A stretch of 64,000 nt of DNA from Candidatus Omnitrophota bacterium (GTDB lineage Bacteria > Omnitrophota > Gorgyraeia > Gygaellales > Profunditerraquicolaceae), in NCBI GenBank assembly GCA_041662125.1, contig JBAZTA010000006.1, positions 5,699 through 69,698 of the forward strand, in the 5' to 3' direction. Shown piece after piece: positions 5,168 through 52,169 of this stretch (position 1 is its first letter; every line of letters begins with the position of its first letter). The notes beneath the pieces are model-generated. The model made no database searches, had not been told where the DNA came from, and worked only from the letters and a program-made list of their open reading frames with translations. A program made the position numbers and the translations under genes.

Positions 5168-6697
5168 TTAATCGATTTTGCATTTTAATTCAAATTCAAT
5201 GCCACCGTTGTCTCCCTTATTCTTGCTCTCGACCAATTTCACATTACTAAACAACCCTTTTTCTAACGCGAGTATAAAATGGGCAAGTATTTGCTCACCG
5301 TCCTGAGCTACAACAGCCCCTTCCATAGTAATTAAATTATCATTCATTTTAAGATGCGTGATATACGCTTTATCAGGGATCAGGTTTGAAAGTTCGATAA
5401 AAACGTCTTCCCATCGGGGCTCCTCAACCAATATCGCGGATGCGAAGTTCTGCGCTTCTACTTGCTTTAACTGCGGCTGTAAGCTGGAAAGCTCCAGCTT
5501 CGCAACAGAAATCCCTTTCTCGAAATTAGCCAGCTGTATTTTCATACCTATATAGGTGAGGATAAAAATAAGAGCAGCCGTTATTGCGATACTTTCGATG
5601 GTTATCCTCTTAAGCATTCTCCCTGCCTCTTCTTTCATTACAACAGGAAGAAGATTAAGCCCTTTTCCTTCACTTAAAGCCGCACCTATTGATAGCGAAA
5701 ACCGATGCGCATCCTTGCCTCTTTGGCCTATCGCCTCTTGTGCGTCCTTTAAGCCTGTTAACGGATCTCCCAGCCTGACTTCTACGCCTAATCGTTGGGC
5801 CAAGTATTTTATAATATCCCCCAACAAAGCGCCCTCTCCGGAGACAATAACCGAGTCGATCTTGCGCCCCACACCTTCTTCTTTATAATAATCAAAACTT
5901 TTTTCTATTTCGACTGCCAATCGCTCCAAAGGAATACGCGCCATAGAAAGAATCTGCATTGAGGAAATTTCATCACTCCTTTCAGGAGATAAAGTACTCG
6001 TCAAAACTTTAGTAAAATCATATTCTTTGACAGGTATCTTACGATTAAATACAAAATCCTTTCCTTTGCAGACGATTAATTCCGTATCAAATTCTCCTAT
6101 ATCAACAAAACATTGGGTTTCCCCTTCCTTAAAGTAGAGACACTCTGCCAATTTCTGCAATGCGTAAGAAAAAGGAACAAAACAAGACGATTTTACGCCT
6201 GCCTTTTCCAGCAAGGATAAATATTTATTGACTGTTTGCTCGGGGCTTACTGCGACTATTAATTCGTATTTCTTGATGCCGTTCTCAATAATCTCTCCTA
6301 ATATCTCAAAATCGAAAATAAACTGGTCTATCGAGAACGGAAAATAGTTTTTCGATTCTAATTTTACACCTTCACACAGTTCCGCCTTGGGCATGTAAGG
6401 CGCTGTTACTTTTCTTAGTACGGTTTGAGCACAATTAATGCTCACTATGATTTTGGCTTTATGTATATCAATACCTCTTAATAATACCTTTAAAGCCCCT
6501 ATCATTTCCTGCTCATTGACGCCAGCATCCCCGCCAGCCTGTTGAAACTCTTTTAAATCAATCCTAAGCAGATGCAGTCCGTCATCCTTCTTTACGAACT
6601 GCGAAACCTTGATCGCAGAAGAACTGATATCCAGGCCGACAATTAAATCTTTTCTGAATATTCCCATTAAATCCATTTTCTCTACACCTTTAAGCAT
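5168..6697 (-). CDS. pilM: PilM (actin-like ATPase fold) fused to PilN
   Basis: 509 aa. N-terminus 'IVGLDISSSAIKV' is PilM-like. A 'GLNLLPVVMKEEAGR' (PilN INLLP-type motif) plus a TM helix follows at about aa 350. The SD-supported start may be the internal ATG at 6676 (MDLMG...). Confidence 0.75.
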   Translation of the reverse strand: MLKGVEKMDLMGIFRKDLIVGLDISSSAIKVSQFVKKDDGLHLLRIDLKEFQQAGGDAGVNEQEMIGALKVLLRGIDIHKAKIIVSINCAQTVLRKVTAPYMPKAELCEGVKLESKNYFPFSIDQFIFDFEILGEIIENGIKKYELIVAVSPEQTVNKYLSLLEKAGVKSSCFVPFSYALQKLAECLYFKEGETQCFVDIGEFDTELIVCKGKDFVFNRKIPVKEYDFTKVLTSTLSPERSDEISSMQILSMARIPLERLAVEIEKSFDYYKEEGVGRKIDSVIVSGEGALLGDIIKYLAQRLGVEVRLGDPLTGLKDAQEAIGQRGKDAHRFSLSIGAALSEGKGLNLLPVVMKEEAGRMLKRITIESIAITAALIFILTYIGMKIQLANFEKGISVAKLELSSLQPQLKQVEAQNFASAILVEEPRWEDVFIELSNLIPDKAYITHLKMNDNLITMEGAVVAQDGEQILAHFILALEKGLFSNVKLVESKNKGDNGGIEFELKCKID

Positions 6698-6703: not shown

Positions 6704-7546
6704 TTAAATAGCCGGAACTATCTCGTTCCAATCTATCTGGTTGTATGCCGTTGGGGCCCCATCAGCTACAACTACCAGCCCGTCATGAATTGCCATGGTC
6801 CGTTCAATCTTTCTATTCATCACGCTCACTGTTCCTGTTGAGGTTATTTTTGCTCCTATAGCCTCTAAAGTCGCAATTATGACACCAGCGTTCGCGCTAA
6901 TCCTGGTAACTCTCAAACGAAGGTATTTAACATTAGATACAGCCGTAAATTCATGAGTCACATCATTTACGTTATTATTAGTTTTCGTAACCACCGTCGT
7001 ATACGTTACATTATCAGGAGAAACTTGCCACGTATAGTCCACAGGCCTGCGTGATGCAGAGGCCGTTGGCACTATAAAACGAACTTTATTTATCGTCAAT
7101 TTATATGGGAAAGTAACGGTAATGTATTGCGGTGTCCCCACTGACGGCCTTGCCGAAGATTGCCAATACGTCGTAGCTGAATTGTCTATAGCAAGGCCCG
7201 CCGCATGGCTTGCCGCGCTTGAAGAAGCCGTAACTGTTGCATTGTGAGATGCCAGGCTCCAGTCCCATCGTTCGACTTTCAAGGTATAACTTCCGGCGCC
7301 TAAGTTTTCTGTGGTAGCAGAAGTTACCCAATTTTCACCCTTGCCGCCTGATGCAACAGGAGTCTTAAGATTCCATACAGCCTTTTGAATTCCGGCTTCA
7401 GCAAGCCATAATGCCCGGGAACTGGCTATGCCATATCCTGACCCTTTGGTCTGAACAGATGTCATATACAAAAAAGATGCTGTAATAACAGTTAACGTTA
7501 TCATAATGATAAATGTAAGTATAAGTACCATGCCTTTTCTATTCAC
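6704..7546 (-). CDS. PilX-N-like minor pilin fused to a discoidin (F5/8 type C) carbohydrate-binding-type domain
   Basis: 280 aa. The N-terminal hydrophobic segment plus 'SSRALWLAEAGIQKAVWNL' matches the PilX_N pattern. The central 'ATTYWQSSARPSVGTPQYITVTFPYKLTINKVRF' is a classic discoidin-domain signature. Confidence 0.6.
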   Translation of the reverse strand: MNRKGMVLILTFIIMITLTVITASFLYMTSVQTKGSGYGIASSRALWLAEAGIQKAVWNLKTPVASGGKGENWVTSATTENLGAGSYTLKVERWDWSLASHNATVTASSSAASHAAGLAIDNSATTYWQSSARPSVGTPQYITVTFPYKLTINKVRFIVPTASASRRPVDYTWQVSPDNVTYTTVVTKTNNNVNDVTHEFTAVSNVKYLRLRVTRISANAGVIIATLEAIGAKITSTGTVSVMNRKIERTMAIHDGLVVVADGAPTAYNQIDWNEIVPAI

Positions 7547-10350: not shown

Positions 10351-10398
10351 AGGCATAAAATAAGAAAGGCCGTGATCGATACTACCAATCACAGCCTT
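10351..10398 (-). terminator. terminator-like hairpin downstream of the giant ORF
   Basis: AAGGCCGTGAT-11nt-ATCACAGCCTT (11-bp stem, one mismatch) with T-runs on both sides, 30 nt after the stop at 10432. Confidence 0.45.
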
Positions 10399-10431
10399 CT
10401 TTTATAGCTATTCGCTAAAATTAAGCCTTAG

Positions 10432-13400
10432 TTATGTGGAGAACTTAGAATCAACAAGCACTAAAGCTTCTTTTATCTCAATCGGAAGGTCGTCAAGCGG
10501 CTCATTAGCTTCCTGCCACTGACAGATCTCAACTAATGCCACGATTAAATCGTTCAAATAGGTGTTTACATCACCTTTTTGCATACATGCGGCCATAAAT
10601 TCTTTGATCCGCTGGCCAGAAACCACAATACCGCTATCAGCCATATTTTTGATCTGTATCATTTCATCAGCAAGGTTCATCTTATCAAGTGCTGCCTGGC
10701 TCAATACCGGAAGGGTAAAATTCAATCCATTAAAACTCCCCATGGGTTTAATCACCAATGTCCTGTCAATGCCGCCAGCGAAATCAATACCACCTTTTTT
10801 AAACGGCGGCTCACCAGTCTTTATAATAGGAGATGCTGAAGCAGAACCTTTCTGTTCCTGATCATTAGCTGGATCGTTAGTTTTTGCAGCAGGCTCAAAC
10901 TGCTCAAGCGGCAGCTGCGGATCAACTCTGAGAAGCTCGAGCACCTTTTGACGTTGCTCTGCAGGCAAACGCCCTAATAATGGGTACAACGCGTTTAATT
11001 GTTTATCTTGTTTTTGTTTTAACTCACTTTTCAATAAATCTTTAGCTGGCTGAGTTAAATCAGCATCATTGATCTTTTGCGTTACTTCCGCGACATATGC
11101 GTCAATATCTTGAATGCTTGATTGAGGAACAAGAGCGATCTCTGAGCGTATTGCTGCCCTCGCCTTGCGGGCTGCCTCTTGAAGTTTGCTCTTTTGAAGC
11201 GCTGCTTCTTTTTCTTCAGCAGAAAATACCGGTTTTGTCGCATTCTGATATGCTGCTGCCACCTTTTTTATGAGCTCTTCTTTCTTAGCATCAGGTAAGA
11301 CTGAATCAGCGATCAAACCTTCAATCAAAGCTTTGGTTTGCTCTACTGCAATAGTATCCCTGCCGCTGCCTGGTACATACGTTAACAGATCATTGAGCCA
11401 ATCATTTATCTCATTATTTTCCCGGATGGCTCTTATTTGACGAATAGCTTCCTTGACAGCACTTTTTTCATCTTCATTCAGCGTTTCCCCCTCTTTCCCA
11501 TCTAAGGCCTCGCTTGCTAAATCATACGCTGCCCTAACATCTTCCGGCCGTGAGGCTGCGGACATTTCCTGCGCTAAATCTTTTATCGTCTCAGGAGTAT
11601 TCCCCGGGATCACTACACCTAATATCACTATTCCTGTTTCTTTCATTGCAGCTTTTGCGGCTTGCCGCTGTTTAGCTTGTTCAATAGCTTGCGCTGCTGC
11701 TCCGCGGATGATCTCTTCTATGGCTGCGCGGTTATCAATTGTTCTCCCGTCGATTACCATAGTCTTAATCGGCCCTTTATTTCCATGTAATATCTGCAAA
11801 GCATTCTTTTGCGCATCCAAGATCTGCTGTTCGTTCCTGTTTTTGGTAAACATATTGTTAACAATCCGCTTGATCTCTTTATTAGCCTTATGTTTATCTA
11901 ATTCCTTCATCCAATTTCGTGGAGCCGAAACTTTTACCGTACGTTTTTCATCAGTACCTGGCATTAATTCAGCTTTGCGCTTCTGGACAGCTTCATCAAT
12001 GGCTTTCATTATTACATCCGCAGCTTCTTGCGTCAGCAATTCATCAGCGACATCCCTTCCCAATAGCGTTGCTGCAGAATCCCTGATTTGTGTCACATCC
12101 TCAACTGTTTGGGCTTCATTAATGCCCTGTATCATTGTTAAAGCAAGCGGCGGTAATCCTTCTGCCAAAGATGCGCCAGCATTATCTGAACCCGGAGTAT
12201 TGACAACCTTATCCACAGCCGGAGCTTTATTTTCTCCCTCGCCTTCCTGCTTTTTATCTTTCCACAATCCAAGGCCTCTCCAAAAATCAGCAACAACAGC
12301 AATGCCTCCCCGGATCATCGCCTTAAACGGATTAACCGTTACCATCTGGTCAGTTGCATCACTTACCGTACGCACTGCCTGAAAAAATACTTCTTTCAAA
12401 AGCCCTGTCTTCTCACCCATCAAAGCCCAAACGCTTGAGCCGCGCCTGGCATGTAAATAAGAAAAAAGCGCGTTGGTCCTATTTTTGGCCGCTCCCAATC
12501 GAGGATCATTAAGCAAAAGGTTTAATATCTTTTCCACCTTTTGTGCTTGAGTCAATCCGTGGTCACGATAAATCCCTAACACATCCTGCAAAATAAGATT
12601 AAAAGTCTTACCATCAACATTCAGATACCCTTTATAGTACTTTGTAAAATAATTCATGAACCGAGCTAACGCCTGCGGATCAGCAGGATTAGTTAAACGT
12701 TCTCCAAATACTGCGATTAAATTTCTTTTTATTGCGGAAGTATTCCATATTGCCTCAAGTAAGGATTTCTCCAAATCATTGGTCACACCATTTACTTTCT
12801 TAATCCCGCTTGTCTTACAGTAATCCCTTACGATATGCCATACCGTAGGCTGTTTAACTCCGGGATTACCCACCTGCGCTTCAAAATACGCTTTAAATTG
12901 AGCCGCTTTACCAGGCCCAAGCAAGCGCAGTATTTCAGCGTTAAATCCCTGATCTTGCCATAATGCCGCAACAAATTGATCCTGCCAGTTGCTTACGTTT
13001 ATTTGCGCGAGAGTGACATCTCCTATGTATTGTTTAAGCGCATCAGCAATCGTATGGTTAGACATTCGTGAGACATCAACTAATTCAATTAGTTTTGCTA
13101 AATCCATCCCTCCGGCATTGCCTGAGAAAACATAAGCGATCGTTTCCTGGGTTTGCGCGGCGCTTATTCCCTTACTGATCAAAAACTGCTCCAAAAGAGC
13201 CTTATTATTCAACGCACTATAATGCTGCGCCATCAAAGTACCAAAATCCGCAGTTACGGCCTTAAATTCTATTTGCGCGTGAGTTGTATCTTCTAAGAAT
13301 TTCCGAAAAGCATTGGCGATCCTGGTATCAGGACTATTGATAAATTCCGCCAATTTATTGGTATTAAGTGTTCCCGGAGCCGGAGCCAGTTGGCTGATAA

Positions 13401-16400
13401 GATTGCTGCCATCGGTTATCCCAGCGTCGCTTAAAACCCGCGCCAATGTCCCCGAACTAATCTTAGCAAGAATATTTGATTTCTGCGTTGCCAGGAAATT
13501 CAACAAAGTATTCGTGGTAGTTGATCCAGGAGTAGGCGCAAACCATGACAGGCCTGCCAATAGTGTCGCCGGGATCAATTTCATTGCCAGAGGAATAATT
13601 ACAAAACTGGTTACACCAAATACAACCCCTCCGACTGCCAAAGCAAAAACAACCTTCACCGCAATTTCTTTTCTTTTAGCGGAGTTATACGCCTGAGTAT
13701 CTATTACGTCTGCCCTTGATATTTTAGTTTGAGCGCGGGCCATTTTAATCTCATCAGTTGTCAGCGCAAGATCCCGCATTACTTGATTAACCGCATCCCA
13801 AAGTTCTTTCCTTAAAGCCTCATCGCTTTTTGTTTCATGTGAATACTTGAATAAGGTTATTGATTGCCTGCTCTGTTGCTCCTGTTCCTGCAATTCCTGA
13901 TAATCTAATATCTTGCCAATTAATGCCAAAGCCTTATCTTTATCAGTGCCAACAGCCTGTAATTCTTCAATCGTCTTGGCAACATCCAGCTTCTGGGCTA
14001 ATGTTGCTTCTAACTTTTTATCTAATCCTGTGCGCTCCTGATTTGAGCGGCCTAAAAGGCCCATGTTATCACGCAACTCAGCCTGGATCTTACTTTGATT
14101 GACTTCCGTATTAGCCCTCAGCGCTGTTATGATCAACCCTGCGGCGATCGCAGGCACTGCAACAGGCCAACCTGCTAACCCGAGGCTGACGATTTTAACT
14201 ATACCGAATATGACTGCCCCATAACCTAAAATACTGATACCGGAGGTAACAATAAACGGAGTAGTCAACGGCCCGAATATACGGCTGCGCTGCATTACAT
14301 TCATAACAGCGGCAATAGCGCGGTTCCACCTGCCGGCAATCTCCGGAGTTTTGATCGCAACATCTTCACCATCAGACAAATCGACAGAAAGCGCGATATC
14401 ATTTGTCGCAAGCGAAGAAGTATCCCGGTTACTCCACCCAGCTTTCATAGTGCGCGCTGCCTGCAAAAGATTGCTCCCTAAAACATCACGGTCTTTATTC
14501 TTGCCGAAAATATCAAGGAGCCGTTGAGTAAAAGCGAAATCATCGACATTATTTTTTATGTAATCAACAAAAAGTTGTTTTATGTCTTCCAGTTGAGTCC
14601 CGGTTACCGGCGTGGTACCCACAGCCTTACCCGTCAATTGACCGTATACATTTTCCTGGATGGTATCGGCAAAAGCAGCCAACATATCGATAAATTGTTC
14701 CGGCGACTCCATATTTCTTAAAAGTCCCACTGCGACATTACGGTCTCCCAGCATATTCTCTAATTCTGTAATTAAGGCATTCAACTCATTTCTGGCTTCC
14801 GCGCTATTCCAGTTATTTATTATGGAGACTAACCTTGTTTGATATTCAGTGGCAAATTTTTCCCTCAGAGGTGCTGCCCTGAAGCGGGAAAAAGCTCTTT
14901 TCATTAATTTTGACCAAAAACCGCCTGTCTGCAAAGAGGCATTAAAACGTTCCTCGGCAAATGCTTGAGCAATGCTTCTGACTTTATGGATAGCGTTAAG
15001 AACTGTAGCTTTTACCGTAGTCCCGCCCGAACCATTATTACCCGTATCATCTTCTGTCTTTTTAGCTACAGCTAAAAGCTCTTCGTTATGTTTTACAATA
15101 ACAGGCTCATCGATCCCTTTTTGTTTACTTTCCACCAATCCGCTCAAACCTTCTCTGGTAGATGGCGATAAGGTGACCTTTAATTTATCTTCTATCCTTT
15201 TAATTACCTCTGCGGCATCAGGAGCTGCAGATTTCATTAATGGCGCGCCTTCAGTAACCCCTTCTACCTCCGGGCTCTGAAGTATCTCTAAGAGTTTTTC
15301 AATCAAATGCCCAATCTCTTTGGTCATTTCATTCGCTACTGTATACGGTGAAGGTGTAGGCTCATTCAACGTATCTATGAGCTTTCCCTGATCTAAGATT
15401 TTTATTAATTCTGCTTTTAGTTGGTCTAAAACTTCTTTTTTCTCAGCCTGGCTTATTCCCGGTTGCATTACCTGTTCGACCAATTTCCTCATTCCTTGAA
15501 GAGGCGCCATAAATGCCATAGGAAATTTCTGAACTTCTTTCTTATTTAAATAGCTATCGATAACTTCCAGCAGCTGCTTACCTGTAACAACGAAATCTTC
15601 TCCTGCTTGCGCGGCTTCTACGGCAGGCTGCATATAGGTGGGCATCGCGGCAATGGTAACACCTGTGGCATCATCAGTGACATTGACCACATCAAGAGCG
15701 TCCCGCACCGCATCATGCGCAAGCTGTTGCGCTGCTTCAGGGGGGACCCCTTGAGTCTCTAAATCAGAAACTAAACCATCAATAAGATCATAATAGTTAA
15801 TTGCCCCACGGACAAAACAAAGCTGCAGCCAAAAAGATTCTAATTGGTCACCCGGAGACTGCGCCCGCATAATTCCATCTGAATAGTGAGGATCCTTAAA
15901 AGGGTGCTTTAAAAAACCGGTGTTTTCTGATGTGGAAAGATTGGGAACCGCGTATTTTGCAGCATAACTATTCTTTATCGCTTCCCTTACCTGCTGCCTC
16001 CATTGCTCAATATTAAGCCCCGGTAAGATCTGTTGTTTTATCCCGCTTTCCTGCACTAACCCATGGATTTCGATCTTCGGATTTATCATTTTCGTAAGAA
16101 CAGCCAAGAATGGCGGAAAGGTGCAATAACCGCTGTCCACAAACATGACCTTTTCGGCGCTGGCGATCCCGAGAGATTGTAATTCTTTCTGGATTTGTTC
16201 GATCTTATCTTTAAAGTTTTTATCCTGAAGCATTTTATTTTTTATAAACTGTTCGAATTTAAGATAAAATTCTTCGCGTGTAACCCCGGGCGTATTCGCT
16301 ATTGATTGAATCGCACTCTTTATCTCACTATAAAAATCTTTAAAGGTCGCGTTTCTGCCGCTGATATAATACAAGAAAGCATCAACGTCTCCCTGAATAA

Positions 16401-18030
16401 TAAGATTTAAGGTATTATGCGCTGAAGCAAGTAACCCCGAATCCCGGGGAATACCTACAACTCTAAAGGCTCCATTCTGGTAAAAAAACATTTCTTCGCC
16501 GTTCCAGGCTGCCATAGCAGAGGCGTAATGCTGCTGGCTGGAGCCGTTATTGACCCTACTTATCAGTTCATTCACCTGATTTTCAACTTGAGTTCTTTGT
16601 TGAGGGTGTTTGGCGATCAGAATGTCTGCAATTTCTTTGATTGCTTTTTCATGGATATCGTTTAAGAATTGCTCCCGTTCTGCTAAAGTCATTTCTCCAT
16701 CTTTGACCTTCTGCCTTAAGGCGACCATTTCCTGGGCATAGCCGGATATTACCTGCCAATAAACCTTCTGCAATTCCTCCTGAGTAATAACCTCATCCTC
16801 TTGCTTTATAAGTTCAGGTAATGCTATCGGGCTTCCCGCGGTTGAGCCCTCTTGAGAATTACCAGCTATTCTCTGGTCAAGTAAACTACGTTGCCCATTA
16901 CCAGAAGTTGTTATTTCAGGGCCATTGATGCCCAACTCCATCAACTCTGTATTCGGCAAACGAGCACTTAAGGGACTGGCTCCCTGAAGGCCATTTATCG
17001 AAATATTTTTCGTAACATCAATTCCTCCGCTGAAATAACTGCGGATCACCTGGCCGGTAGGAGTATAAACAGGCTCTTTAATATTGTATTCACCTTCAGC
17101 AAATGATTTTTTGTAAGCCTCAAAATAAGTATTCTTGGCCCAATTACCCTTGGAGATTAAATTACTGAGGTCTCTTTTGTCGATACGCGCGGCATAGCTT
17201 GAATTTTGTCCTGCAAAACGTATCTTAAACCAGCGCGATAAAACAAGCGAATAATACACCTGGCGTAACGCGGCATAGCGTTTGGAAGCATTAACCTCTT
17301 TAGTTAATTTAGGTATGATGATCTCGCGGATAAGCTCTGAAGAATATTCATTCAATGCCTTTGCCCGTTCATCTTTAAAATTGTATTGTGTTGAATCCTT
17401 TAAATAATCCTGCTCCAGCATGACCTTGAGCGTGGCTTTATATATATAAGCGCTATCCTGGGCCTCACGGACAATGATCTCATTCGGGACGATCCAAGGC
17501 CGGGTCAGTGTAGGAATATTGACATTTTCCATCCCATATATTTCTGCCGCTTTTTTATATAATTTATCCCAATAAAGCTTTCCTTCAGAAGTTTCCGGAG
17601 AGGTAAAGAGTGCGGTATCTTTTTTAAGCTGTAGATCAGCTTCGAGCATGATCTTGCCAACATCAGTATTCTCAAGGTCTTTATCTATGATCTCATCAGA
17701 AGCATCAGGCCTTAAGTTAACCCAAAAAGTACTATTCGGAAGGCTTAAGCCTATTAAAAAGTAATCTATAAGGACCTTAGTTGTATCCTGGAGTTGGATA
17801 CCGGCAACATCTTTACTGTCTCCCTTATCCAAAAGAACCCTGATATTATTGTTTCCAGCGTCATAAGAAAAATAACGCAGGTGCATTGGCCGGAATTTAT
17901 CAATGACAAGATTAGAATTCATCTTGTGCAAATAACCGCCCACATTAAGTTCAGCGGCAACTTGCGCAAAACCTAATTGCTGAAACAATAAACTGAAGCT
18001 TATAACTATTGCCAGAATTCGACGGACCAT
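10432..18030 (-). CDS. giant 2,532-aa secreted/membrane-inserting protein of unknown function
   Basis: Uninterrupted 7,599-nt ORF. SD AAGGAGA lies 8 nt upstream. N-terminal Sec signal 'MVRRILAIVISFSLLFQQLGFAQVAA'. Two hydrophobic hairpins (about aa 1170-1225 and 1395-1445) separate an N-terminal ~1,150-aa domain from a K/E/A/Q-rich coiled-coil C-terminal ~1,080 aa. No motif I can assign to a known family. Confidence 0.85.
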   Translation of the reverse strand: MVRRILAIVISFSLLFQQLGFAQVAAELNVGGYLHKMNSNLVIDKFRPMHLRYFSYDAGNNNIRVLLDKGDSKDVAGIQLQDTTKVLIDYFLIGLSLPNSTFWVNLRPDASDEIIDKDLENTDVGKIMLEADLQLKKDTALFTSPETSEGKLYWDKLYKKAAEIYGMENVNIPTLTRPWIVPNEIIVREAQDSAYIYKATLKVMLEQDYLKDSTQYNFKDERAKALNEYSSELIREIIIPKLTKEVNASKRYAALRQVYYSLVLSRWFKIRFAGQNSSYAARIDKRDLSNLISKGNWAKNTYFEAYKKSFAEGEYNIKEPVYTPTGQVIRSYFSGGIDVTKNISINGLQGASPLSARLPNTELMELGINGPEITTSGNGQRSLLDQRIAGNSQEGSTAGSPIALPELIKQEDEVITQEELQKVYWQVISGYAQEMVALRQKVKDGEMTLAEREQFLNDIHEKAIKEIADILIAKHPQQRTQVENQVNELISRVNNGSSQQHYASAMAAWNGEEMFFYQNGAFRVVGIPRDSGLLASAHNTLNLIIQGDVDAFLYYISGRNATFKDFYSEIKSAIQSIANTPGVTREEFYLKFEQFIKNKMLQDKNFKDKIEQIQKELQSLGIASAEKVMFVDSGYCTFPPFLAVLTKMINPKIEIHGLVQESGIKQQILPGLNIEQWRQQVREAIKNSYAAKYAVPNLSTSENTGFLKHPFKDPHYSDGIMRAQSPGDQLESFWLQLCFVRGAINYYDLIDGLVSDLETQGVPPEAAQQLAHDAVRDALDVVNVTDDATGVTIAAMPTYMQPAVEAAQAGEDFVVTGKQLLEVIDSYLNKKEVQKFPMAFMAPLQGMRKLVEQVMQPGISQAEKKEVLDQLKAELIKILDQGKLIDTLNEPTPSPYTVANEMTKEIGHLIEKLLEILQSPEVEGVTEGAPLMKSAAPDAAEVIKRIEDKLKVTLSPSTREGLSGLVESKQKGIDEPVIVKHNEELLAVAKKTEDDTGNNGSGGTTVKATVLNAIHKVRSIAQAFAEERFNASLQTGGFWSKLMKRAFSRFRAAPLREKFATEYQTRLVSIINNWNSAEARNELNALITELENMLGDRNVAVGLLRNMESPEQFIDMLAAFADTIQENVYGQLTGKAVGTTPVTGTQLEDIKQLFVDYIKNNVDDFAFTQRLLDIFGKNKDRDVLGSNLLQAARTMKAGWSNRDTSSLATNDIALSVDLSDGEDVAIKTPEIAGRWNRAIAAVMNVMQRSRIFGPLTTPFIVTSGISILGYGAVIFGIVKIVSLGLAGWPVAVPAIAAGLIITALRANTEVNQSKIQAELRDNMGLLGRSNQERTGLDKKLEATLAQKLDVAKTIEELQAVGTDKDKALALIGKILDYQELQEQEQQSRQSITLFKYSHETKSDEALRKELWDAVNQVMRDLALTTDEIKMARAQTKISRADVIDTQAYNSAKRKEIAVKVVFALAVGGVVFGVTSFVIIPLAMKLIPATLLAGLSWFAPTPGSTTTNTLLNFLATQKSNILAKISSGTLARVLSDAGITDGSNLISQLAPAPGTLNTNKLAEFINSPDTRIANAFRKFLEDTTHAQIEFKAVTADFGTLMAQHYSALNNKALLEQFLISKGISAAQTQETIAYVFSGNAGGMDLAKLIELVDVSRMSNHTIADALKQYIGDVTLAQINVSNWQDQFVAALWQDQGFNAEILRLLGPGKAAQFKAYFEAQVGNPGVKQPTVWHIVRDYCKTSGIKKVNGVTNDLEKSLLEAIWNTSAIKRNLIAVFGERLTNPADPQALARFMNYFTKYYKGYLNVDGKTFNLILQDVLGIYRDHGLTQAQKVEKILNLLLNDPRLGAAKNRTNALFSYLHARRGSSVWALMGEKTGLLKEVFFQAVRTVSDATDQMVTVNPFKAMIRGGIAVVADFWRGLGLWKDKKQEGEGENKAPAVDKVVNTPGSDNAGASLAEGLPPLALTMIQGINEAQTVEDVTQIRDSAATLLGRDVADELLTQEAADVIMKAIDEAVQKRKAELMPGTDEKRTVKVSAPRNWMKELDKHKANKEIKRIVNNMFTKNRNEQQILDAQKNALQILHGNKGPIKTMVIDGRTIDNRAAIEEIIRGAAAQAIEQAKQRQAAKAAMKETGIVILGVVIPGNTPETIKDLAQEMSAASRPEDVRAAYDLASEALDGKEGETLNEDEKSAVKEAIRQIRAIRENNEINDWLNDLLTYVPGSGRDTIAVEQTKALIEGLIADSVLPDAKKEELIKKVAAAYQNATKPVFSAEEKEAALQKSKLQEAARKARAAIRSEIALVPQSSIQDIDAYVAEVTQKINDADLTQPAKDLLKSELKQKQDKQLNALYPLLGRLPAEQRQKVLELLRVDPQLPLEQFEPAAKTNDPANDQEQKGSASASPIIKTGEPPFKKGGIDFAGGIDRTLVIKPMGSFNGLNFTLPVLSQAALDKMNLADEMIQIKNMADSGIVVSGQRIKEFMAACMQKGDVNTYLNDLIVALVEICQWQEANEPLDDLPIEIKEALVLVDSKFST

Positions 18031-18091
18031 TGAATAATCTCCTTTTTTGGGATTTAAAAGTGAAATTTGATAAGAAATAATGTATTATGAT

Positions 18092-18120
18092 AAATATAAC
18101 CTATAAACGGGTGTTTTTCA
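18092..18120 (-). promoter_or_regulatory. candidate sigma70 promoter for the giant ORF
   Basis: Minus strand TTGAAA-17nt-TATATT, about 60 nt upstream of the SD. Confidence 0.3.
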
Positions 18121-18171
18121 AGGCGTTACGAAGGGTTTTTGAAAGCGTTTACACAAAAGCAAGACCCGTGC

Positions 18172-18228
18172 ACGGAAAAAAGACCCGGTCTTGGATTGCA
18201 ATTTCCCGTTATAGATAAGACCGGGTCT
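18172..18228 (-). terminator. Rho-independent terminator after macB
   Basis: Inverted copies AAGACCCGGTCTT and AAGACCGGGTCTT (13-bp stem, 24-nt loop) followed on the minus strand by TTTTTT. Confidence 0.55.
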
Positions 18229-18283
18229 TAAAATGGAAGACTTAAAACTTATTTATTTCTCTTTACCTATATAATAGGTCCTT

Positions 18284-43031: not shown

Positions 43032-46000
43032 TTACTGAGAATGTTTTGGGCGATCTTGAGGCAACTTTTTTATCTCAGAATGGTACTTCCAGATAGTATA
43101 AACTGCCGGCAAAACCACTAACGTCAGGACCGTGGAAGTTGTCAATCCTCCGATCAGGGGAGCCGCGATACGCTTCATCACATCAGCGCCGGTCCCCGTA
43201 CTTAGCATGACCGGCATCAGGCCAAAAATATTTGCTCCCACAGTCATCAACTTTGGCCTTAAGCGTTGCACCGCGCCTTCCATCACAGCATCATAGAGAT
43301 CAGTAAGATTATTCATTTTCCCCTGAGCTTTACGACGAGAATAAGCTTCATCTAAATACACGATCATGATAGAGCCTGTTTCCGCAGCAACACCTGCCAA
43401 GGCGATCAAGCCGACCCAGACCGCGATGCTCATATTATAACCCAGCAAGAACAGATACCATATGCCGCCGATCAATGCAAACGGCACAGACATCATAACG
43501 ATCACAGTTTCAATTACTGACTTAAAGGTAAAGAAATAAAGTATAAATATGATAAAAACAGTAAGCGGCACAAAAATTTTGAGCCTGTTCTTGACCCTTT
43601 GCATATATTCATACTGTCCCGACCAGATAAGCGAATATCCGACGGGTAATTTTATCTCTTGGCTTACCGCCTTTTTAGCATCCGCGACAAAACCTCCCAC
43701 ATCACGGCCAGCAATATCCACATAGACATAACCGGATAGCAGGCCATTTTCATCTCTGATCATCGACGGCCCTAACTTTAAATTAATATCGGCGATCTGC
43801 GCTAAAGGGATATGCCTGCCGTCCATTGTCGTCACTAAAACGGCTTTAAGCTTATCCACATTATCCCGTAACTCCCTGCCATAGCGCACATTGACAGGAT
43901 ACCGCTGCCTGCCTTCAACGGTCGTAGTAATATTCTCTCCGCCAATAGCAGACATAATAATATCTTCGGCATCAGCCACAGTCAAGCCATACCGGGCGAG
44001 ATCCTTACGCTTGAGATCAAAATCGACAAAATATCCGCCGGCAACCCGTTCGGAATAAACACTACGCGTTCCGGAGACCTGTTTTAAAACCTGCTCAATA
44101 TGTATCCCGATCTTTTCTATCTCATCTAAGTTTGAGCCGTAGATTTTAATACCGACAGGAGTGCGCACTCCCGTGGTAAGCATATCGATCCGGCCCTTAA
44201 TAGGCATGGTCCAGGCATTCGTTGTTCCCGGGATCTTCATCTTGCCATCCATCTCATCGATGAGTTTTTCCCAAGTCAACCGAGGACGCCAATATTTCCT
44301 ATCCTTTAACACAACGGTTGTCTCCATCATGGAAAAAGGCGCCGGGTCGGTTGAACTCGTGGCCCTGCCTGCCTTGCCGAATACCCGCTCAACCTCCGGG
44401 AAAGATTTCAAGATCTTATCCTGCGTCTGCAATAATTTTGTGGCTTCTGTTACAGAAAGCCCTGGCAGCGTCGTAGGCATGTAAAGTATTGTCCCCTCAT
44501 TAAGAGGCGGCATAAATTCCGATCCCATCATCAAAAACGCAGGAACGGTAAGCGCCATACTCAAGAGGGCTACTGCCACGACGGCATTGCGATGCTTGAT
44601 CGCCCAATGAGCGACAGGATGATATAGTTTGATCAAAAATCTACTGATAGGATGGCGGTCTTCAGAGATGATCTTGCCGCCGATAAAGAAATTAGTGATA
44701 GCGGTTAAAAACTTATTCTTGAATTTGTATTCCTTTCCCCGCACAAACACCATGACCAATGCGGGAGTCAAAGTAATAGCAAGAAGCGCTGCAAAGAATA
44801 TGGAATAATTCTTGGTAAAAGCCAGCGGTTTAAAGAGCCGTCCTTCCTGCGCCTCAAGCGTAAATATAGGCATAAAGGCGACTGCCATAACCAAGAGCGA
44901 CGCAAATATCGGCGGCCCGACTTCTTTCATTGCCCCGATGATGATCTCATCGCGCGACCCTTTTCTTAACCCCTTCGTCCATTCGTCTAAGCGTTTATGC
45001 ACATTTTCTACAAAAACTATTGAGCCATCGACCATATCCCCGATAGCCACGACGATGCCCCCCAAAGACATAATATTAGAGGTCAACTTCATCCAACCCA
45101 TAGGGATAAAAGCAATGATCACCGCAATGGGCAAGCCTATGATCGGCACCAGCGCTGAACGAAAATGCAACAGGAAAAAAATAAGCATAAAGCTGACGAT
45201 GATAAGTTCCTGAACGAGATTATCCTTTACCGTATCAATAGAAGCCTTAATTAAATCGGAACGGTCATACACCGTAACGACTTTTACCCCTTTAGGCAAT
45301 GAAGGCTCAATTTGTTTTAGCTTTGCCTTGACTTTATTAATTACCTCCAAAGCGTTTTCTTTGTGGCGCATGACCACAATGCCGCCGACAACTTCGCCTT
45401 TACCGTCAAGCTCAGCCACCCCCCTTCTTATATCCGGCCCTAAAGAAACTTGGGCTACCTGTCCTATAGTTACGGCCGCGCCATTCATTGACGAACCGAC
45501 CACAATATCTTTAAGGTCATCGATACTTTTAATATACCCGCGGCCCCGCACCATATATTCGGCGCCGCTCCATTCAATAAGCCTGCCTCCAACATCATTA
45601 TTGCTTTTACGGATATTCTCGATCACCCGCATTAAGGGGATATTATAGGCTAAGAGCGTATTGGGATTAATAGTGATCTGATACTGCCTGACAAATCCAC
45701 CGACTGTTGCTACTTCAGCTACTCCCGGCACAGCCTGCAGATAATAGCGTAAATACCAATCCTGGAAGCTGCGTAAGTCCGCTAAAGAATTCTCACCCGT
45801 TTCATCTACAAGCGCATATTGGAAAACCCATCCCACCCCTGTTGCATCCGGCCCTAATTCAACCTGCACTCCCTCGGGTAAACGCGGTATGGTCTTACTT
45901 AAATACTCCAAAATGCGGGAACGCGCCCAATAGATATCTGTCCCGTCTTCAAAGATAATATAGACGTAGGAAAAGCCGAAATCAGAAAACCCCCGAATAT

Positions 46001-46247
46001 CTTTAACTTTTGGCGCTCCTAACATCGAAGTCACGATCGGATACGTAACCTGGTCTTCGATGATATCGGGTGAGCGGTCCCAACGGGAATAAATAATTAC
46101 CTGCGTGTCGGAAAGATCGGGTATCGCGTCAAGCGGGACCTGCCTCATAGAGTAAAGCCCGGCCAAAGTCACTACGCCGACTAAAAGAAATACGATAAAT
46201 TTATTCTTGGCGCAAAACTCGATTATATTTTCTACTAACTTAGTCAT
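43032..46247 (-). CDS. cusA: CusA/CzcA-family heavy-metal efflux RND permease
   Basis: 1,071 aa, 12 TM plus two large periplasmic loops, HME-RND N-terminal pattern. Confidence 0.9.
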   Translation of the reverse strand: MTKLVENIIEFCAKNKFIVFLLVGVVTLAGLYSMRQVPLDAIPDLSDTQVIIYSRWDRSPDIIEDQVTYPIVTSMLGAPKVKDIRGFSDFGFSYVYIIFEDGTDIYWARSRILEYLSKTIPRLPEGVQVELGPDATGVGWVFQYALVDETGENSLADLRSFQDWYLRYYLQAVPGVAEVATVGGFVRQYQITINPNTLLAYNIPLMRVIENIRKSNNDVGGRLIEWSGAEYMVRGRGYIKSIDDLKDIVVGSSMNGAAVTIGQVAQVSLGPDIRRGVAELDGKGEVVGGIVVMRHKENALEVINKVKAKLKQIEPSLPKGVKVVTVYDRSDLIKASIDTVKDNLVQELIIVSFMLIFFLLHFRSALVPIIGLPIAVIIAFIPMGWMKLTSNIMSLGGIVVAIGDMVDGSIVFVENVHKRLDEWTKGLRKGSRDEIIIGAMKEVGPPIFASLLVMAVAFMPIFTLEAQEGRLFKPLAFTKNYSIFFAALLAITLTPALVMVFVRGKEYKFKNKFLTAITNFFIGGKIISEDRHPISRFLIKLYHPVAHWAIKHRNAVVAVALLSMALTVPAFLMMGSEFMPPLNEGTILYMPTTLPGLSVTEATKLLQTQDKILKSFPEVERVFGKAGRATSSTDPAPFSMMETTVVLKDRKYWRPRLTWEKLIDEMDGKMKIPGTTNAWTMPIKGRIDMLTTGVRTPVGIKIYGSNLDEIEKIGIHIEQVLKQVSGTRSVYSERVAGGYFVDFDLKRKDLARYGLTVADAEDIIMSAIGGENITTTVEGRQRYPVNVRYGRELRDNVDKLKAVLVTTMDGRHIPLAQIADINLKLGPSMIRDENGLLSGYVYVDIAGRDVGGFVADAKKAVSQEIKLPVGYSLIWSGQYEYMQRVKNRLKIFVPLTVFIIFILYFFTFKSVIETVIVMMSVPFALIGGIWYLFLLGYNMSIAVWVGLIALAGVAAETGSIMIVYLDEAYSRRKAQGKMNNLTDLYDAVMEGAVQRLRPKLMTVGANIFGLMPVMLSTGTGADVMKRIAAPLIGGLTTSTVLTLVVLPAVYTIWKYHSEIKKLPQDRPKHSQ

Positions 46248-46249
46248 CC

Positions 46250-47434
46250 TTAGTTCCCATGCTTATGCTCACTGCCCGTTATAGCAGACTGTAACCGCGA
46301 CTCAGAATCGATCAAGAAATTCCCGGAAGTTAGGATAGTTTCGCCTTCGCGTACCCCTTCGAGCACCTCATAAAACCCCTCGGCGCTTTGGCCTAATCTA
46401 ACTTCCTTGCTTAAGAAATTCCCTTTTTCGTCAGTAACGACCACCACCGCCCTTTTCCCGGTATTGATCACTGCTTCTTGTGAAACAGCCAATTTTTCTC
46501 CGAGATCCACATTGATCTTTACATTGACAAACATCTCAGGCTTGAGTTTATTGTCTGGATTACCAACCTCGGCCCTTGCTTGGACAGAGCGGGTCATGGG
46601 GTCTAAAACCGGAGTAATACTGGTTATTACGCCGCTAAATTTCTCACCCGGAAAGGCAATTGACTCTATTTCCACAGAAACCCCTTCTTTGATATATCCT
46701 ATCTCATATTCATAAATGGTCATATAAACCCAAACGGGGCTTTCCTTTGCAGGTAAATAAAGATTCTCCTGGGGTTTATTCTGTTGTTCTAATTCTTTGA
46801 TCTGCGCTTGATTCATCCCCAAAAGAAGCAGTTTTCTTTCTGCTGCCTCTGCCAAAGAATCAGACTGCGCGGAGATGAATGAATCACGCAAAGCATTCTG
46901 GGTCTTAAGCGCTTGGAGATATTCCTGTTGGGCTACATACAAGTCAGGATCATACGCAATTTTTCCTATGGTAAGAATTTCATGGGTTAGTTTTCTTTTC
47001 TGGACCTTTTCTTTCTTTACCCCTGCCAATTGCTGCCTCTCAGGGCTAATATAAATACCCGATGCGCCTGCGGCCTCGTTTTCATAAACCGGGACATACT
47101 CCATCCCCATAGGATCCTTCATGGGGACAGGTGAAGTGACTGCTGGATTCATGGGATTACGATAATAAATGATCTTCCGATCTTTGGCCTTCGTATCCGC
47201 GCGTCCTTCATGCCCTGAAGCTTCCTGCTTAACTAATTTCATGCCGCATATTCCACAATCCCCTGGCTTATCAGATGTAAACTCCGGATGCATTGGACAA
47301 GAATACACACTATTTTTCGCGCTCTCGGGGCTATTCCCAGAACTCGCAAAAATCATGTCGCGCGATGCATAAAAAACAAAACCCGCGATGCTTAATCCCA
47401 GGATAATTATAATTACAATATTCTTCTTTTTCAT
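46250..47434 (-). CDS. cusB: CusB-like RND periplasmic adaptor with N-terminal heavy-metal-binding domain
   Basis: 'YSCPMHPEFTSDKPGDCGICGMKLV' is the CPMHP...CxxCGM HMBD motif. The rest is membrane-fusion-protein-like. Confidence 0.8.
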   Translation of the reverse strand: MKKKNIVIIIILGLSIAGFVFYASRDMIFASSGNSPESAKNSVYSCPMHPEFTSDKPGDCGICGMKLVKQEASGHEGRADTKAKDRKIIYYRNPMNPAVTSPVPMKDPMGMEYVPVYENEAAGASGIYISPERQQLAGVKKEKVQKRKLTHEILTIGKIAYDPDLYVAQQEYLQALKTQNALRDSFISAQSDSLAEAAERKLLLLGMNQAQIKELEQQNKPQENLYLPAKESPVWVYMTIYEYEIGYIKEGVSVEIESIAFPGEKFSGVITSITPVLDPMTRSVQARAEVGNPDNKLKPEMFVNVKINVDLGEKLAVSQEAVINTGKRAVVVVTDEKGNFLSKEVRLGQSAEGFYEVLEGVREGETILTSGNFLIDSESRLQSAITGSEHKHGN

Positions 47435-47445
47435 AATTTATCTCC

Positions 47446-48702
47446 TTATTGTTTCAGATCTACTCCTACGGCGCGCTCCAGATCTGCCACGTTCATATCA
47501 TACTCTATTAGTGCTTTATAATATTGCAGTTTAGTCTCAATAAACATCCTTTGATTATCCAAAAGCGCCATAAAATCGCCTTTACCTGAACGAAACGCAA
47601 ACAAGGATACTTCAAGAGAACTCTGCACTATCGGTAAAAGGCTGTTTTTAGAGAGCGCTATTTTGTTTTTCGCGATTTTGGTCTTTACCGCTAAGTCCTT
47701 TACCTCGGCAAACAACTTGTTTTGCATTGCCTTATACGCGGCTTCTGCTTCTTCAAGGCTGGCGATCGCCTCTTTTACCTCATACTTCTGCTTAGTCCAA
47801 AACCAGAGCGGGACGCTAAAAGACAGCATTAAATCCCAGGGGCCAAGCGTTCCGGAAGTAATACCGCGTTGCACGACACTTGCCATCAGATCCGGGAAAA
47901 AACTTTTTTTCGCCAGAGATTTAGCGTGTTTGTTCTTCTCTACCGCCAATGAAAAAATAAGCAGTTCCGGTTGATTCATGACTGTCAATTGGTATAATGA
48001 CTTAATGTCGGCGCTAAAATTCACGTCTTCGCTCAGCTGCGGGATACCAAACGGACTTTCAGGATCTCTATTTAATACCGTATTAAGGCGGGTTTGCCTG
48101 GAAGATTGTTCTAACTCTAAATTTTTTATGGTATTAGCTAAGCGGGCAACCTCCAGATGAATTTTATAGACCTCTTCTTGAGAAAGAGCGCCTACTGAAT
48201 ATTTTGACTCGGCAACTTTCGCAATACCTTCTAATAAAATCAGGCTCTCCTGCATAAGCTCTCTTTCTTTGTAATTCATGAAGAGGTCATAATAGGCATT
48301 CCTCACCTGATTAATGACCTGGAGCTCTTGAGCCTTATATTCCGCGGCAAACATCTGTGATTCGACCACCGCGATCTTGCCTTTTAAAGACAATTTGCCA
48401 AACAAAGGAAAAAATTGCGAGAGAGTCAGCATACGGTCGTCTGGCATGGTTTGATTTAATTTTAAGGTCCCGCGGGGAATACGCTCCAAGGTAAGGCCTA
48501 TACTCGGATCTTCAAGCGACTTCGAAAGTGGGATACGCGCTACAGATGCTTCCCAGCGCTTTTGAGCGGCTAAAATATCGGGGTTATGATTTCTGGCCTC
48601 CTCGATCAGAGGTTCTAAAGAAAGAATGTCTGAGGAATAGGCAATTCCTTGTGTTAAGAATATTGCGCTGATCAAAAATAAAATAAGCGTTTTCTTAAAC
48701 AT
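47446..48702 (-). CDS. cusC: TolC/CusC-family outer-membrane factor
   Basis: 418 aa, signal peptide, duplicated OEP repeats. Confidence 0.8.
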   Translation of the reverse strand: MFKKTLILFLISAIFLTQGIAYSSDILSLEPLIEEARNHNPDILAAQKRWEASVARIPLSKSLEDPSIGLTLERIPRGTLKLNQTMPDDRMLTLSQFFPLFGKLSLKGKIAVVESQMFAAEYKAQELQVINQVRNAYYDLFMNYKERELMQESLILLEGIAKVAESKYSVGALSQEEVYKIHLEVARLANTIKNLELEQSSRQTRLNTVLNRDPESPFGIPQLSEDVNFSADIKSLYQLTVMNQPELLIFSLAVEKNKHAKSLAKKSFFPDLMASVVQRGITSGTLGPWDLMLSFSVPLWFWTKQKYEVKEAIASLEEAEAAYKAMQNKLFAEVKDLAVKTKIAKNKIALSKNSLLPIVQSSLEVSLFAFRSGKGDFMALLDNQRMFIETKLQYYKALIEYDMNVADLERAVGVDLKQ

Positions 48703-48779
48703 CGTGAACCGGACTTTCTAAAATGAAGGACAAGCGCTACGGCTTCAGAAAACAACACAACATGAGATATTTAATTATA

Positions 48780-49898: not shown

Positions 49899-49910
49899 GT
49901 ATCCCCCCTG

Positions 49911-50600: not shown

Positions 50601-51019
50601 TTTGCTTCCTCTAAAAATGCGCTGACTTGCTCGACAACATAATTAATAAACTTTTGTTTATTACGGGAATAATCCCAGATCTTATCGAGGTTTTTTGATT
50701 TAATCTCTTTTCCATCTTTCTTCAGAGATAAAACCAGCGACTTAGTGTAAAGCTGATAGTCTTGCACAAAATGTTCGTTCTCTTGCTCTTCAACATTGAC
50801 CTCTTTGAACTCAAGTTTCCCTGATGCAAGGGCATCTTTAAAATTCACATCGATCGCTTCCCTCGAATATTTCTCCAGAGTGGTGCAGGTAACGCAGCGG
50901 AAGGATCCATGGAAATAATACACGCTTACCTGGGTGAGGCCGGTTTTCCCCTCTAAAGATGCGCAGAGGTTGCCGCTCATTAAAACAAAGGCCATCAAGA
51001 TCAATAATAATCTTTTCAA
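50597..51019 (-). CDS. secreted thioredoxin-fold CxxC protein (possibly ArsF-type partner of the DsbD-like protein)
   Basis: 140 aa, signal peptide, 'FRCVTCTTLE' CxxC. Overlaps the downstream gene by 4 nt. Confidence 0.45.
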   Translation of the reverse strand: MKRLLLILMAFVLMSGNLCASLEGKTGLTQVSVYYFHGSFRCVTCTTLEKYSREAIDVNFKDALASGKLEFKEVNVEEQENEHFVQDYQLYTKSLVLSLKKDGKEIKSKNLDKIWDYSRNKQKFINYVVEQVSAFLEEAK

Positions 51020-51029
51020 ATTTCCCCTT

Positions 51030-51281: not shown

Positions 51282-51332
51282 TTAGACACTCCTTACAAAA
51301 CCAACTTCGCAGCCTGCGCAGCAAATTTCAAA

Positions 51333-51353: not shown

Positions 51354-51374
51354 AAAAAGTGATCCTGCCTCCGT

Positions 51375-52160: not shown

Positions 52161-52169
52161 AGTACACTC

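Follow-up and report, generated by a model that had tools for sequence, protein, structure and literature searches.

The window analyzed here is a 64-kb stretch of contig JBAZTA010000006.1 (positions 5,699 to 69,698) from a Candidatus Omnitrophota bacterium, and its most conspicuous gene is a single unbroken open reading frame (ORF) at positions 10432 to 18030 of the minus strand, which starts with ATG and encodes a protein of 2,532 amino acids (aa). The runner-up ORF in the window, a 1,071-aa AcrB homolog, is far shorter, and the initial annotation of the gene as uninterrupted and outsized was correct. It was also right to place the gene between an efflux pump and pilus genes: TolC-MacA-MacB lies upstream, and pilC, three pseudopilins, a PilX-like pilin with a discoidin domain, a PilM-PilN fusion, and pilO lie downstream, all on the same strand. 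The protein is an exact match to hypothetical protein WDL87_08895 of a Candidatus Omnitrophota metagenome-assembled genome (MAG), in agreement with the proposal that this is an autonomous-looking gene of a host-dependent nanobacterial phylum. The interest of the locus lies neither in the size of the gene nor in its lack of domains but, rather, in the two ends of the protein, which belong to a huge, uncurated family in which a conserved export-type frame encloses interchangeable, largely cytoplasm-type cargo.

The unusual length of the ORF and its metagenomic origin raise the possibility of an assembly chimera, a multigene read-through, or a decaying pseudogene. Independent ENA, Logan, and JGI assemblies contain two full-length orthologs (P0002 and P0003; 78 to 80% identity) that align with it collinearly, and the identical architecture recurs across independent ENA, Logan, JGI, and NCBI assemblies, with the family N and C domains at the expected ends. 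In a codon alignment with the ortholog at locus L001, the ratio of nonsynonymous to synonymous substitution rates (dN/dS) was 0.11 overall at a dS of ∼1.0, and every 150-codon window fell between 0.04 and 0.23. The whole length is under purifying selection. Because the orthologs are collinear and dN/dS is low in every window, a chimeric join, read-through, or pseudogene can be excluded for practical purposes, and we assign such an origin a negligible probability. Scans of the whole protein against Pfam, NCBIfam, and PHROGs returned sub-threshold noise only, a PDB sequence search gave no match, self-BLAST revealed no internal repeats, and no model of a characterized giant-adhesin family in Pfam or NCBIfam matched with confidence. 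The initial description of a giant without recognizable domains holds for Pfam, NCBIfam, PHROGs, and PDB, but the first ∼340 and last ∼120 aa are conserved domains, and these ends define a family of thousands; the protein is not a unique, domain-less giant.

In a first search, the giant protein matched hundreds of Omnitrophota proteins of 1.4 to 4.4 thousand amino acids (kAA), which covered 13 to 18% of the query at 55 to 72% identity. By BLASTP, the shared parts are aa 1 to ∼340 and ∼2410 to 2529, both of which are found at the extreme termini in 107 of 115 paralogs, while the middles of the paralogs differ completely despite the shared N domain. An exhaustive profile search with the N domain across 1.84 billion cluster representatives returned at least 7,698 clusters at an E value of ≤1e-3 and 6,392 at ≤1e-30. 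Among the 150 matches listed by this search, the N domain forms one stretch at residues ∼1 to 350 in all 150, and the protein lengths range from about 450 to 7,391 aa. When one genome per GTDB species was scanned for the N domain, 416 loci were found, nearly all in Omnitrophota-labeled MAGs, with several per genome and some in tandem pairs; the few loci labeled Planctomycetales, Thermodesulfovibrionia, and similar are probably mislabeled bins. The family is thus very large, restricted to Omnitrophota, and unnamed in curated databases. Neither the N nor the C domain is described in West-Roberts et al. 2023, Nielsen & Lui 2026, or Seymour et al. 2023, and literature searches yielded no description of the family. 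That the giant ORF belongs to this family and shares its bookend architecture, a conserved domain at either end, is close to certain.

Some features of the family loci bear on how members are counted. Adjacent family genes run head to tail at L015 (653-9979 and 10001-15919), L031, and L059 and lie on opposite strands at L025. At least five N-domain ORFs exceed 3,680 aa and leave the 10-kb flank, and some members may be much longer. At L084 (ENA contig_4667), many genes, among them ones with DHO_dh, OMPdecase, enolase, and PEP-utilizer domains, are split into short, frameshifted pieces, and the apparent stand-alone C-domain proteins there are artefacts, a caution for family counts in public protein sets. 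Stand-alone C-domain proteins were rejected as a class, since the short matches are fragments on short contigs or come from frameshift-ridden assemblies.

The following elements make up the frame in the giant protein, in the order of translation:

Positions 17965 to 18030, minus strand: predicted signal peptide, aa 1 to 22, MVRRILAIVISFSLLFQQLGFA↓Q (then QVA), with a basic n-region (MVRR), a hydrophobic core, and a GFA↓Q c-region.
Positions 17020 to 17964, minus strand: family N domain, aa 23 to 337, modeled as alpha/beta with three beta-hairpins and ending in an invariant S-G-G.
Positions 16783 to 17019, minus strand: junction 1, aa 338 to 416, a poorly conserved linker with ASPL at 351 and GSPI at 399.
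Positions 10705 to 10836, minus strand: junction 2, aa 2399 to 2442, with ASPI at 2399, GGIDF at 2413, GGIDR at 2419, and PMGSF.GLNF.
Positions 16969 to 16980, 16825 to 16836, and 10825 to 10836, minus strand: the [AGS]SP[ILV] sites of the two junctions, at aa 351, 399, and 2399.
Positions 10435 to 10704, minus strand: family C domain, aa 2443 to 2532, modeled as a five-helix bundle, with Cys 2482 and Cys 2503.

The Sec signal proposed initially is present as a sequence pattern, and it is a property of the whole family. Among 183 full-length family N-termini, all 183 have the tripartite n/h/c pattern. The n-region is basic (median, three Lys/Arg) and free of acidic residues; the h-region has an 11-residue core with a mean hydropathy of 2.9; and the c-region reads (G/S)FAQ in 141/183 and conforms to a looser related motif in 171/183. 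Two other kinds of leader were considered and rejected. A type IV prepilin-like leader at GFAQ does not fit, because the hydrophobic stretch lies ahead of the motif instead of behind it and position +5 is not Glu, and neither does a twin-arginine signal, because most paralogs carry RK, not RR.

The N domain immediately follows. It is 55 to 72% identical among paralogs, with about 90 invariant columns, and the family motifs FWVNLRPD, LQLKKD, IPTLTRPWIVP, and Y.SGG are all present in the giant protein, at its extreme N-terminus behind the signal peptide. Around two-thirds of N-domain residues are effectively fixed, whereas the sequence downstream varies freely. The median N-domain identity is 0.70 within one genome and 0.68 between genomes, and the nearest N-domain relative of 33/41 paralogs is found in another genome. 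Since identity within genomes is about the same as between them, the conservation reflects old purifying selection, and gene conversion or recent cassette exchange was rejected as its source. Constraint of this kind argues for an invariant interaction partner or a catalytic role. The domain has no sequence or fold match, is absent from Pfam, NCBIfam, and PDB, and found no match among viral structures with Foldseek; its AlphaFold2 model has a predicted local distance difference test (pLDDT) score of 73 and a predicted template modeling (pTM) score of 0.69. PDB profile searches with the N domain, the C domain, and the cargo module described below gave weak matches only, none of them meaningful (penton, E = 0.11; designed PPR; ACP, E = 0.09).

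The borders between the end domains and the variable part are marked by short motifs. The most strongly over-represented 4-mers in the variable parts of the family are SSPV, ASSP, SSSP, AGSP, and SSPI, and the pattern [AGST]S[SA]P[ILMV] is enriched 24-fold over shuffled sequences. The frequency of [AGS]SP[ILVM] is 8.8 per 1,000 aa in the first 100 residues past the N domain and 6.7 in the 45 residues ahead of the C domain, compared to 1.1 in the cargo interior, such that the junctions are 6 to 8 times denser. In the giant protein, the motif occurs exactly three times, at the junctional sites listed above and nowhere in the interior. From its sequence, it could be a processing, glycosylation, or hinge site. 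A second motif, GGID[FL], is found once per protein, with a median distance to the C-terminus of 116 aa, and members of 6.4 kAA and longer are no exception. The giant protein conforms, with the GGIDF at 2413 duplicated as GGIDR at 2419; the G-I core is invariant in the family. Junction 2 was modeled as extended, with low confidence. The last ∼120 aa contain the compact, Cys-bearing terminal domain that the initial annotation had described, and, like the N domain, the C domain is absent from Pfam, NCBIfam, and PDB.

The cargo of the family was tallied from the precomputed Pfam domains of the 115 listed paralogs. Enzymes of glycolysis, gluconeogenesis, or the pentose-phosphate pathway are present in 51/115, often several per chain; these central-carbon cargoes comprise PGK, enolase, TIM, GAPDH, iPGM, PGM/PMM, PPDK/PEP synthase, aldolase, FBPase, GPI, transaldolase, and transketolase. 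Other cytoplasm-type domains account for 34/115 (guanylate and adenylate kinase, ROK and FGGY kinases, radical SAM, NUDIX, HD, metallophosphoesterase, receiver, MutS_V, PRTase, and GNAT), and the remaining 30/115 have no Pfam match. Most paralogs are without an internal hydrophobic, transmembrane (TM) segment. At L057, a stand-alone 451-aa enolase adjoins a family member, and at least some of the fused enzymes are therefore extra copies. The neighborhoods of 79 family loci, with up to 10 kb of flank on either side, contain no conserved neighbor gene. The most widespread neighbor family occurs in 8/79 loci, on which ground a dedicated neighboring transporter, protease, or chaperone was rejected.

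The cargo of the giant protein is divided as follows:

Positions 15061 to 16782, minus strand: cargo module, aa 417 to 990 (∼570 aa), with strongly conserved motifs.
Positions 14263 to 15060, minus strand: orphan cargo, aa 991 to 1256, with homologs in the two orthologs only.
Positions 14113 to 14262, minus strand: hydrophobic hairpin 1, aa 1257 to 1306, two helices joined by a single-Lys link and flanked by Arg, conserved in P0002 and P0003.
Positions 13672 to 14112, minus strand: inter-hairpin segment, aa 1307 to 1453, dN/dS about 0.1.
Positions 13537 to 13671, minus strand: hydrophobic hairpin 2, aa 1454 to 1498, preceded by KRK, with a single-Lys link and a short second helix, conserved in both orthologs.
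Positions 12061 to 13536, minus strand: orphan cargo, aa 1499 to 1990, rich in Ala, Leu, Thr, and Asn.
Positions 10837 to 12060, minus strand: charged region rich in Ala, Glu, Lys, and Gln, aa 1991 to 2398, the least conserved between orthologs and with indels.

A search with aa 346 to 2400 alone retrieved only six proteins. The module at aa 417 to 990 is recognizable by the motifs HYAxAMAAWNGEEM, FPRDxGLL, LFYISGxNxTF, VxFVDSGYxTFP, and INSKHxGxDxPVI and is present as one copy each in the two orthologs, P0006, and P0121, as two copies in P0005, and as four in P0004. It has no Pfam or PDB profile match, and Pfam scans of P0004, P0005, and P0121 were likewise empty. P0004 (HQL24_05990) and P0005 (HQL24_05985), which carry the module in tandem, are encoded by adjacent genes on a 114.8-kb Omnitrophica contig; their N domain is divergent (∼32% identical), and their C domain is shorter, with GGIDF 63 aa from the end. 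A sensitive search with aa 1001 to 2400 against all retrieved proteins recovered the two orthologs only. Both of the hydrophobic hairpins reported earlier exist, although simple hydropathy places them 60 to 90 residues nearer the C-terminus than the positions first given (aa 1170 to 1225 and 1395 to 1445). The K/E/A/Q-rich composition attributed to the entire C-terminal half is similarly real but confined to about aa 2000 to 2400.

The immediate surroundings of the gene include the following sequence signals:

Positions 18180 to 18229, minus strand: terminator-like hairpin after macB, 13-bp stem and U-run, -25.3 kcal/mol, z = -3.45.
Positions 18093 to 18121, minus strand: promoter-like sigma-70 site, TTGAAA-17-TATATT, matching 10/12 consensus positions.
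Positions 18039 to 18043, minus strand: Shine-Dalgarno sequence, AGGAG, 8 nucleotides upstream of the ATG.
Positions 10365 to 10399, minus strand: intrinsic-terminator-like hairpin between the giant gene and pilC, 16-bp stem and T-rich tail.

The promoter and bracketing terminators of the initial annotation are accordingly present, as consensus-type sequence matches, and sigma-70-like sites around the gene are no more frequent than in shuffled sequence. The predicted hairpin at 18180 to 18229 sets the giant gene apart from the efflux operon. In each of the three or four related genomes seen, pilC is the next gene downstream and has the same orientation; because these genomes are close relatives, the shared order is a poor guide to function. 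The association with MacAB-TolC varies: on the P0003 contig (JGI 3300075153), an additional OEP-MFP-MFS (EmrAB-like) operon separates macB from the giant gene, and genes thus appear to have been gained or lost in the intergenic region upstream of the latter. The adjoining pump is of the MacB type and is not a protein-exporting type I ABC transporter.

Within the pilus cluster (pilC, pseudopilins, pilMN, and pilO), the PilX-like minor pilin at 6704 to 7546 (minus strand) carries an F5/8 type C (discoidin) domain and is a candidate for an adhesive protein at the pilus tip, such as has been discussed in connection with host attachment in Omnitrophota; PilM and PilN are fused in a 509-aa protein at 5168 to 6697 (minus strand). 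Elsewhere in the window, a CusCBA-like pump at 43032 to 53342 (minus strand), consisting of an AcrB family protein, an MFP with a heavy-metal-binding domain, and an OEP, is followed by an arsenic-type set of genes (an SBF/ACR3-like transporter, a DsbD-like protein, an S-adenosylmethionine [SAM] methyltransferase, and an ArsP permease). The region from 56000 to 62000 has a GC content of 0.36 to 0.39, compared to about 0.43 elsewhere, and encodes a KAP-family P-loop NTPase (59534 to 60985), a DUF2157 membrane protein, and unannotated ORFs. Possibly this is an island that was gained by horizontal transfer or is related to defense. CorA, MsrAB, and glycosidases are also encoded, and the remainder of the window is what would be expected of a diderm bacterium. 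Almost every gene is on the minus strand, with a negative GC skew along the full length, and Rfam and tRNA scans of the 64-kb window gave no match.

Previous work has described large proteins of Omnitrophota that carry signal peptides and domains of sugar metabolism and are predicted to be extracellular (doi 10.1101/2023.11.21.568195; 10.64898/2026.06.07.730766). Both preprints report Omnitrophota proteins above 10 to 30 kAA, and their authors were puzzled by the predicted extracellular location of such domains. These giants ("Archaeovorins," West-Roberts et al. 2023; "multi-enzyme metabolic clusters," Nielsen & Lui 2026) have the phylum, the signal peptide, and a mostly unannotated large sequence in common with the giant ORF, and they share with its bookend relatives the domains PGM/PMM, TIM, GPI, FBP aldolase/phosphatase, PPDK, radical SAM, NUDIX, HEAT, receiver, and ROK. 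They have been suggested to act at the surface or on a host, and their classes are defined by Pfam content. The giant ORF, in contrast, encodes 2.5 kAA with none of the defining Pfam domains. Archaeovorin genes exceed 90 kb (proteins above 30,000 aa), whereas the protein here has 2,532 aa, and the glycosyl transferase, methyltransferase, glycosyl hydrolase, peptidase, SAM-methylase, or NUDIX domains of Archaeovorins have no counterpart among its Pfam matches at E ≤ 1 (none above cutoff). It resembles them in its Omnitrophota origin and in the signal peptide or numerous TM helices by which they are recognized, though it has only four TM helices.

Other systems show parts of the same logic. TpsA exoproteins, PE/PPE proteins, and oomycete CRN effectors likewise have many paralogs, a conserved N-terminal module at or after the export signal, and a free, sometimes enzymatic remainder. 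The bookend family has no sequence or fold similarity to these proteins and differs from them in its second, C-terminal domain, in a cargo of housekeeping metabolic enzymes rather than toxins, and in that no adjacent transporter was found. In particular, there is no TPS/Haemagg_act beta-helix as in TpsA and no adjacent TpsB (POTRA plus ShlB-type barrel), nor one conserved in the 79 loci. MARTX and polymorphic toxins also place interchangeable cargo between conserved flanks, and processing at the borders is a MARTX feature, but the family has no RTX repeats, no cysteine-protease domain, a Sec rather than a type I signal, no evidence of toxicity, and no sign of recent cassette exchange or gene conversion. 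The hairpins of the giant protein recall a further group. Colicin pore domains, the diphtheria toxin T domain, type III translocators, and the "bilobed" domains of chlamydial Inc proteins are membrane inserters built on hydrophobic helical hairpins. The likeness to Inc- or colicin-like inserters is one of form: each hairpin is a two-helix segment of 40 to 50 aa with a minimal turn, within the 40 to 60 aa of a bilobed domain, in an otherwise soluble, predicted-exported protein. No homology to such inserters was detected, and no type III system was seen in the window.

The explanation that we favor starts from the order of the frame: a predicted Sec signal (GFA↓Q), an alpha/beta N domain of ∼315 aa, an [AGS]SP[ILV] linker, variable cargo, a second [AGS]SP[ILV] linker, GGIDF, and a helical bundle of ∼90 aa. 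Sec would export the family protein, with removal of the signal peptide, and the end domains would serve as generic handles that recognize either a conserved partner or machine with its genes elsewhere or, head to tail, each other. Through these handles, the cargo would be sorted, anchored, or assembled at the cell surface or at the zone of contact with a host or prey. Because the enzyme cargoes need ATP, NAD, or phosphorylated sugars, they would be sensible only where exported proteins meet the cytoplasm of another cell. Open cytoplasmic contact between Velamenicoccus and its prey is reported from transmission electron microscopy (PMC13153191, citing Kizina 2022). The giant protein is nonenzymatic by all searches, and its two tight hydrophobic hairpins make it most likely a membrane-inserting or anchoring component of the set. 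A surface, host-interaction, or membrane-inserting role had been suggested from the outset and is still the most plausible reading, but that suggestion did not account for the family frame, in which most relatives are cytoplasm-type enzymes without internal membrane segments. In a variant of this explanation, the N and C domains dock head to tail, and separate members would be noncovalent versions of the covalent giant multi-enzyme proteins.

We put the probability of this explanation as a whole, architecture and mechanism combined, at about 0.5. The export-and-handle mechanism taken by itself is tentative, and several observations weigh against it. Export is predicted from sequence alone, the whole analysis being based on sequence and predicted structure. 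Cargoes that depend on ATP, NAD, or Fe-S clusters (PGK, kinases, radical SAM, and receiver) would be useless in the periplasm, and the family could instead stay in the cytoplasm of the producer; to our knowledge, Fe-S enzymes cannot mature after Sec export. No partner gene is conserved beside the family members at the 79 loci. The Arg/Lys flanks of the hairpins fit flanking segments that are cytoplasmic (the positive-inside rule), which conflicts with a model in which Sec simply exports the entire chain into the membrane of the producer. Finally, the N domain was modeled with only moderate confidence, from a shallow, 18-sequence alignment, so that "novel fold" here means that no match was found.

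The junctions allow a different account of the end domains, one that is compatible with the favored explanation. The family proteins may be precursors or polyproteins, in which SGG plus [AGS]SP[ILV] at one border and [AGS]SP[ILV] plus GGIDF at the other are processing sites and the end domains act as a pro-region or chaperone that is cut off to free the cargo. The enrichment of the junction motif, its 6- to 8-fold higher density at both borders than in the interiors, and the position of GGIDF, with its invariant G-I core, exactly at the border of cargo and C domain all fit this account. C39 peptidases cleave after Gly-Gly, which also counts in its favor. West-Roberts et al. proposed that giant Omnitrophota proteins are cleaved by their own C39 and S8 peptidase domains. 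The giant protein, however, contains no protease, none is conserved beside the family genes, and a role as flexible linkers, glycosylation sites, or structural elements would suit the motifs equally well; we regard the precursor account as doubtful, if worth keeping in view. A purely local role for the giant protein, in which the hairpins anchor it in the producer's inner membrane and it works with the type IV pilus/type II secretion-like genes or with MacAB-TolC, for example as a periplasmic scaffold or substrate, would draw on its signal peptide and membrane hairpins and on the consistent position of pilC. We judge this unlikely. The synteny comes from close relatives only (N domain about 91% and whole protein 78 to 80% identical), strong predicted terminators part the gene from both pilC and macB, one orthologous locus has the OEP-MFP-MFS operon between macB and the gene, and other family members have no conserved neighbor, while the pump itself is of the MacB type and not a type I protein exporter.

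A further account is that the N-terminal hydrophobic segment does not serve export and that the N and C domains tether housekeeping enzymes, together with the giant protein, into an assembly in the cytoplasm or at the membrane face. The typically cytoplasmic cargoes, including radical SAM, receiver, MutS_V, and nucleotide kinase domains, and the positively charged hairpin flanks point in this direction, and the difficulty of squaring Fe-S- and ATP-dependent cargoes with Sec export keeps such a cytoplasmic scaffold alive. Against it stand the full n/h/c pattern, with small residues at -3 and -1, in 183/183 N-termini, the published topology predictions, which also give signal peptides for long Omnitrophota proteins, and the stand-alone enolase at L057, which makes some fused enzymes extra copies; on balance, a scaffold of this kind seems quite improbable. 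The least plausible of the functional alternatives is that the protein is a giant adhesin of a classical kind or an RTX-like toxin that leaves the cell through type I, type V, or type IX secretion. Its large size, signal peptide, ABC-MFP-TolC neighbors, and conserved C-terminal domain might suggest one. No Ig-like, cadherin, RTX, TPS, autotransporter, or type IX secretion C-terminal domain matched at E ≤ 1, though, the C domain is modeled as helical rather than as a beta-sandwich or beta-barrel, the N domain model is not a beta-helix, internal repeats are absent, and no TpsB or Omp85 gene lies nearby. Each class of substrate is also contradicted individually. Type I/RTX substrates are at odds with the lack of a PF00353 match, the presence of a signal peptide, and an ABC neighbor of the MacB rather than the HlyB type; type IX cargo, with the lack of a TIGR04183/Por_Secre_tail C-terminal domain and an all-helical C domain model; autotransporters and inverse autotransporters, with the lack of a terminal 12- to 16-strand beta-barrel; and repeat-type giant adhesins (Ig-like, cadherin, and Bap/SiiE), with the lack of tandem repeats by Pfam and self-BLAST. 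We consider this alternative very improbable.

The favored export-and-handle explanation has a more ambitious form, which we regard as conceivable but not probable. Omnitrophota would possess a phylum-wide, modular system of "externalized metabolism" or effectors, made up of thousands of Sec-exported proteins that include complete glycolytic sets. The N and C domains would sort these proteins, possibly by docking head to tail to form heteromeric chains in imitation of the covalent giants. The proteins would then coat the surface or be delivered into a host or prey cell whose cytoplasm has been opened, and the giant protein would insert into the target or anchoring membrane.

Large, signal-peptide-bearing, multi-domain proteins of Omnitrophota were already known, and discussion of them has centered on individual giants, whose "extracellular" glycolytic domains were puzzling. 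What is new is the frame common to at least 7,698 clusters, consisting of a signal peptide, a constrained N domain, marked junctions, and a C domain, with domains that are absent from Pfam, NCBIfam, and PDB. Two new domain models would relabel thousands of proteins that are now "hypothetical" or misnamed, such as the predicted-exported fusions of 2 to 3 kAA that are called "phosphoglycerate kinase." A single N and a single C domain provide an experimental handle on the sorting or assembly partner of the whole family, and they sharpen the question of whether these ultra-small episymbionts really export cytoplasm-type metabolism.

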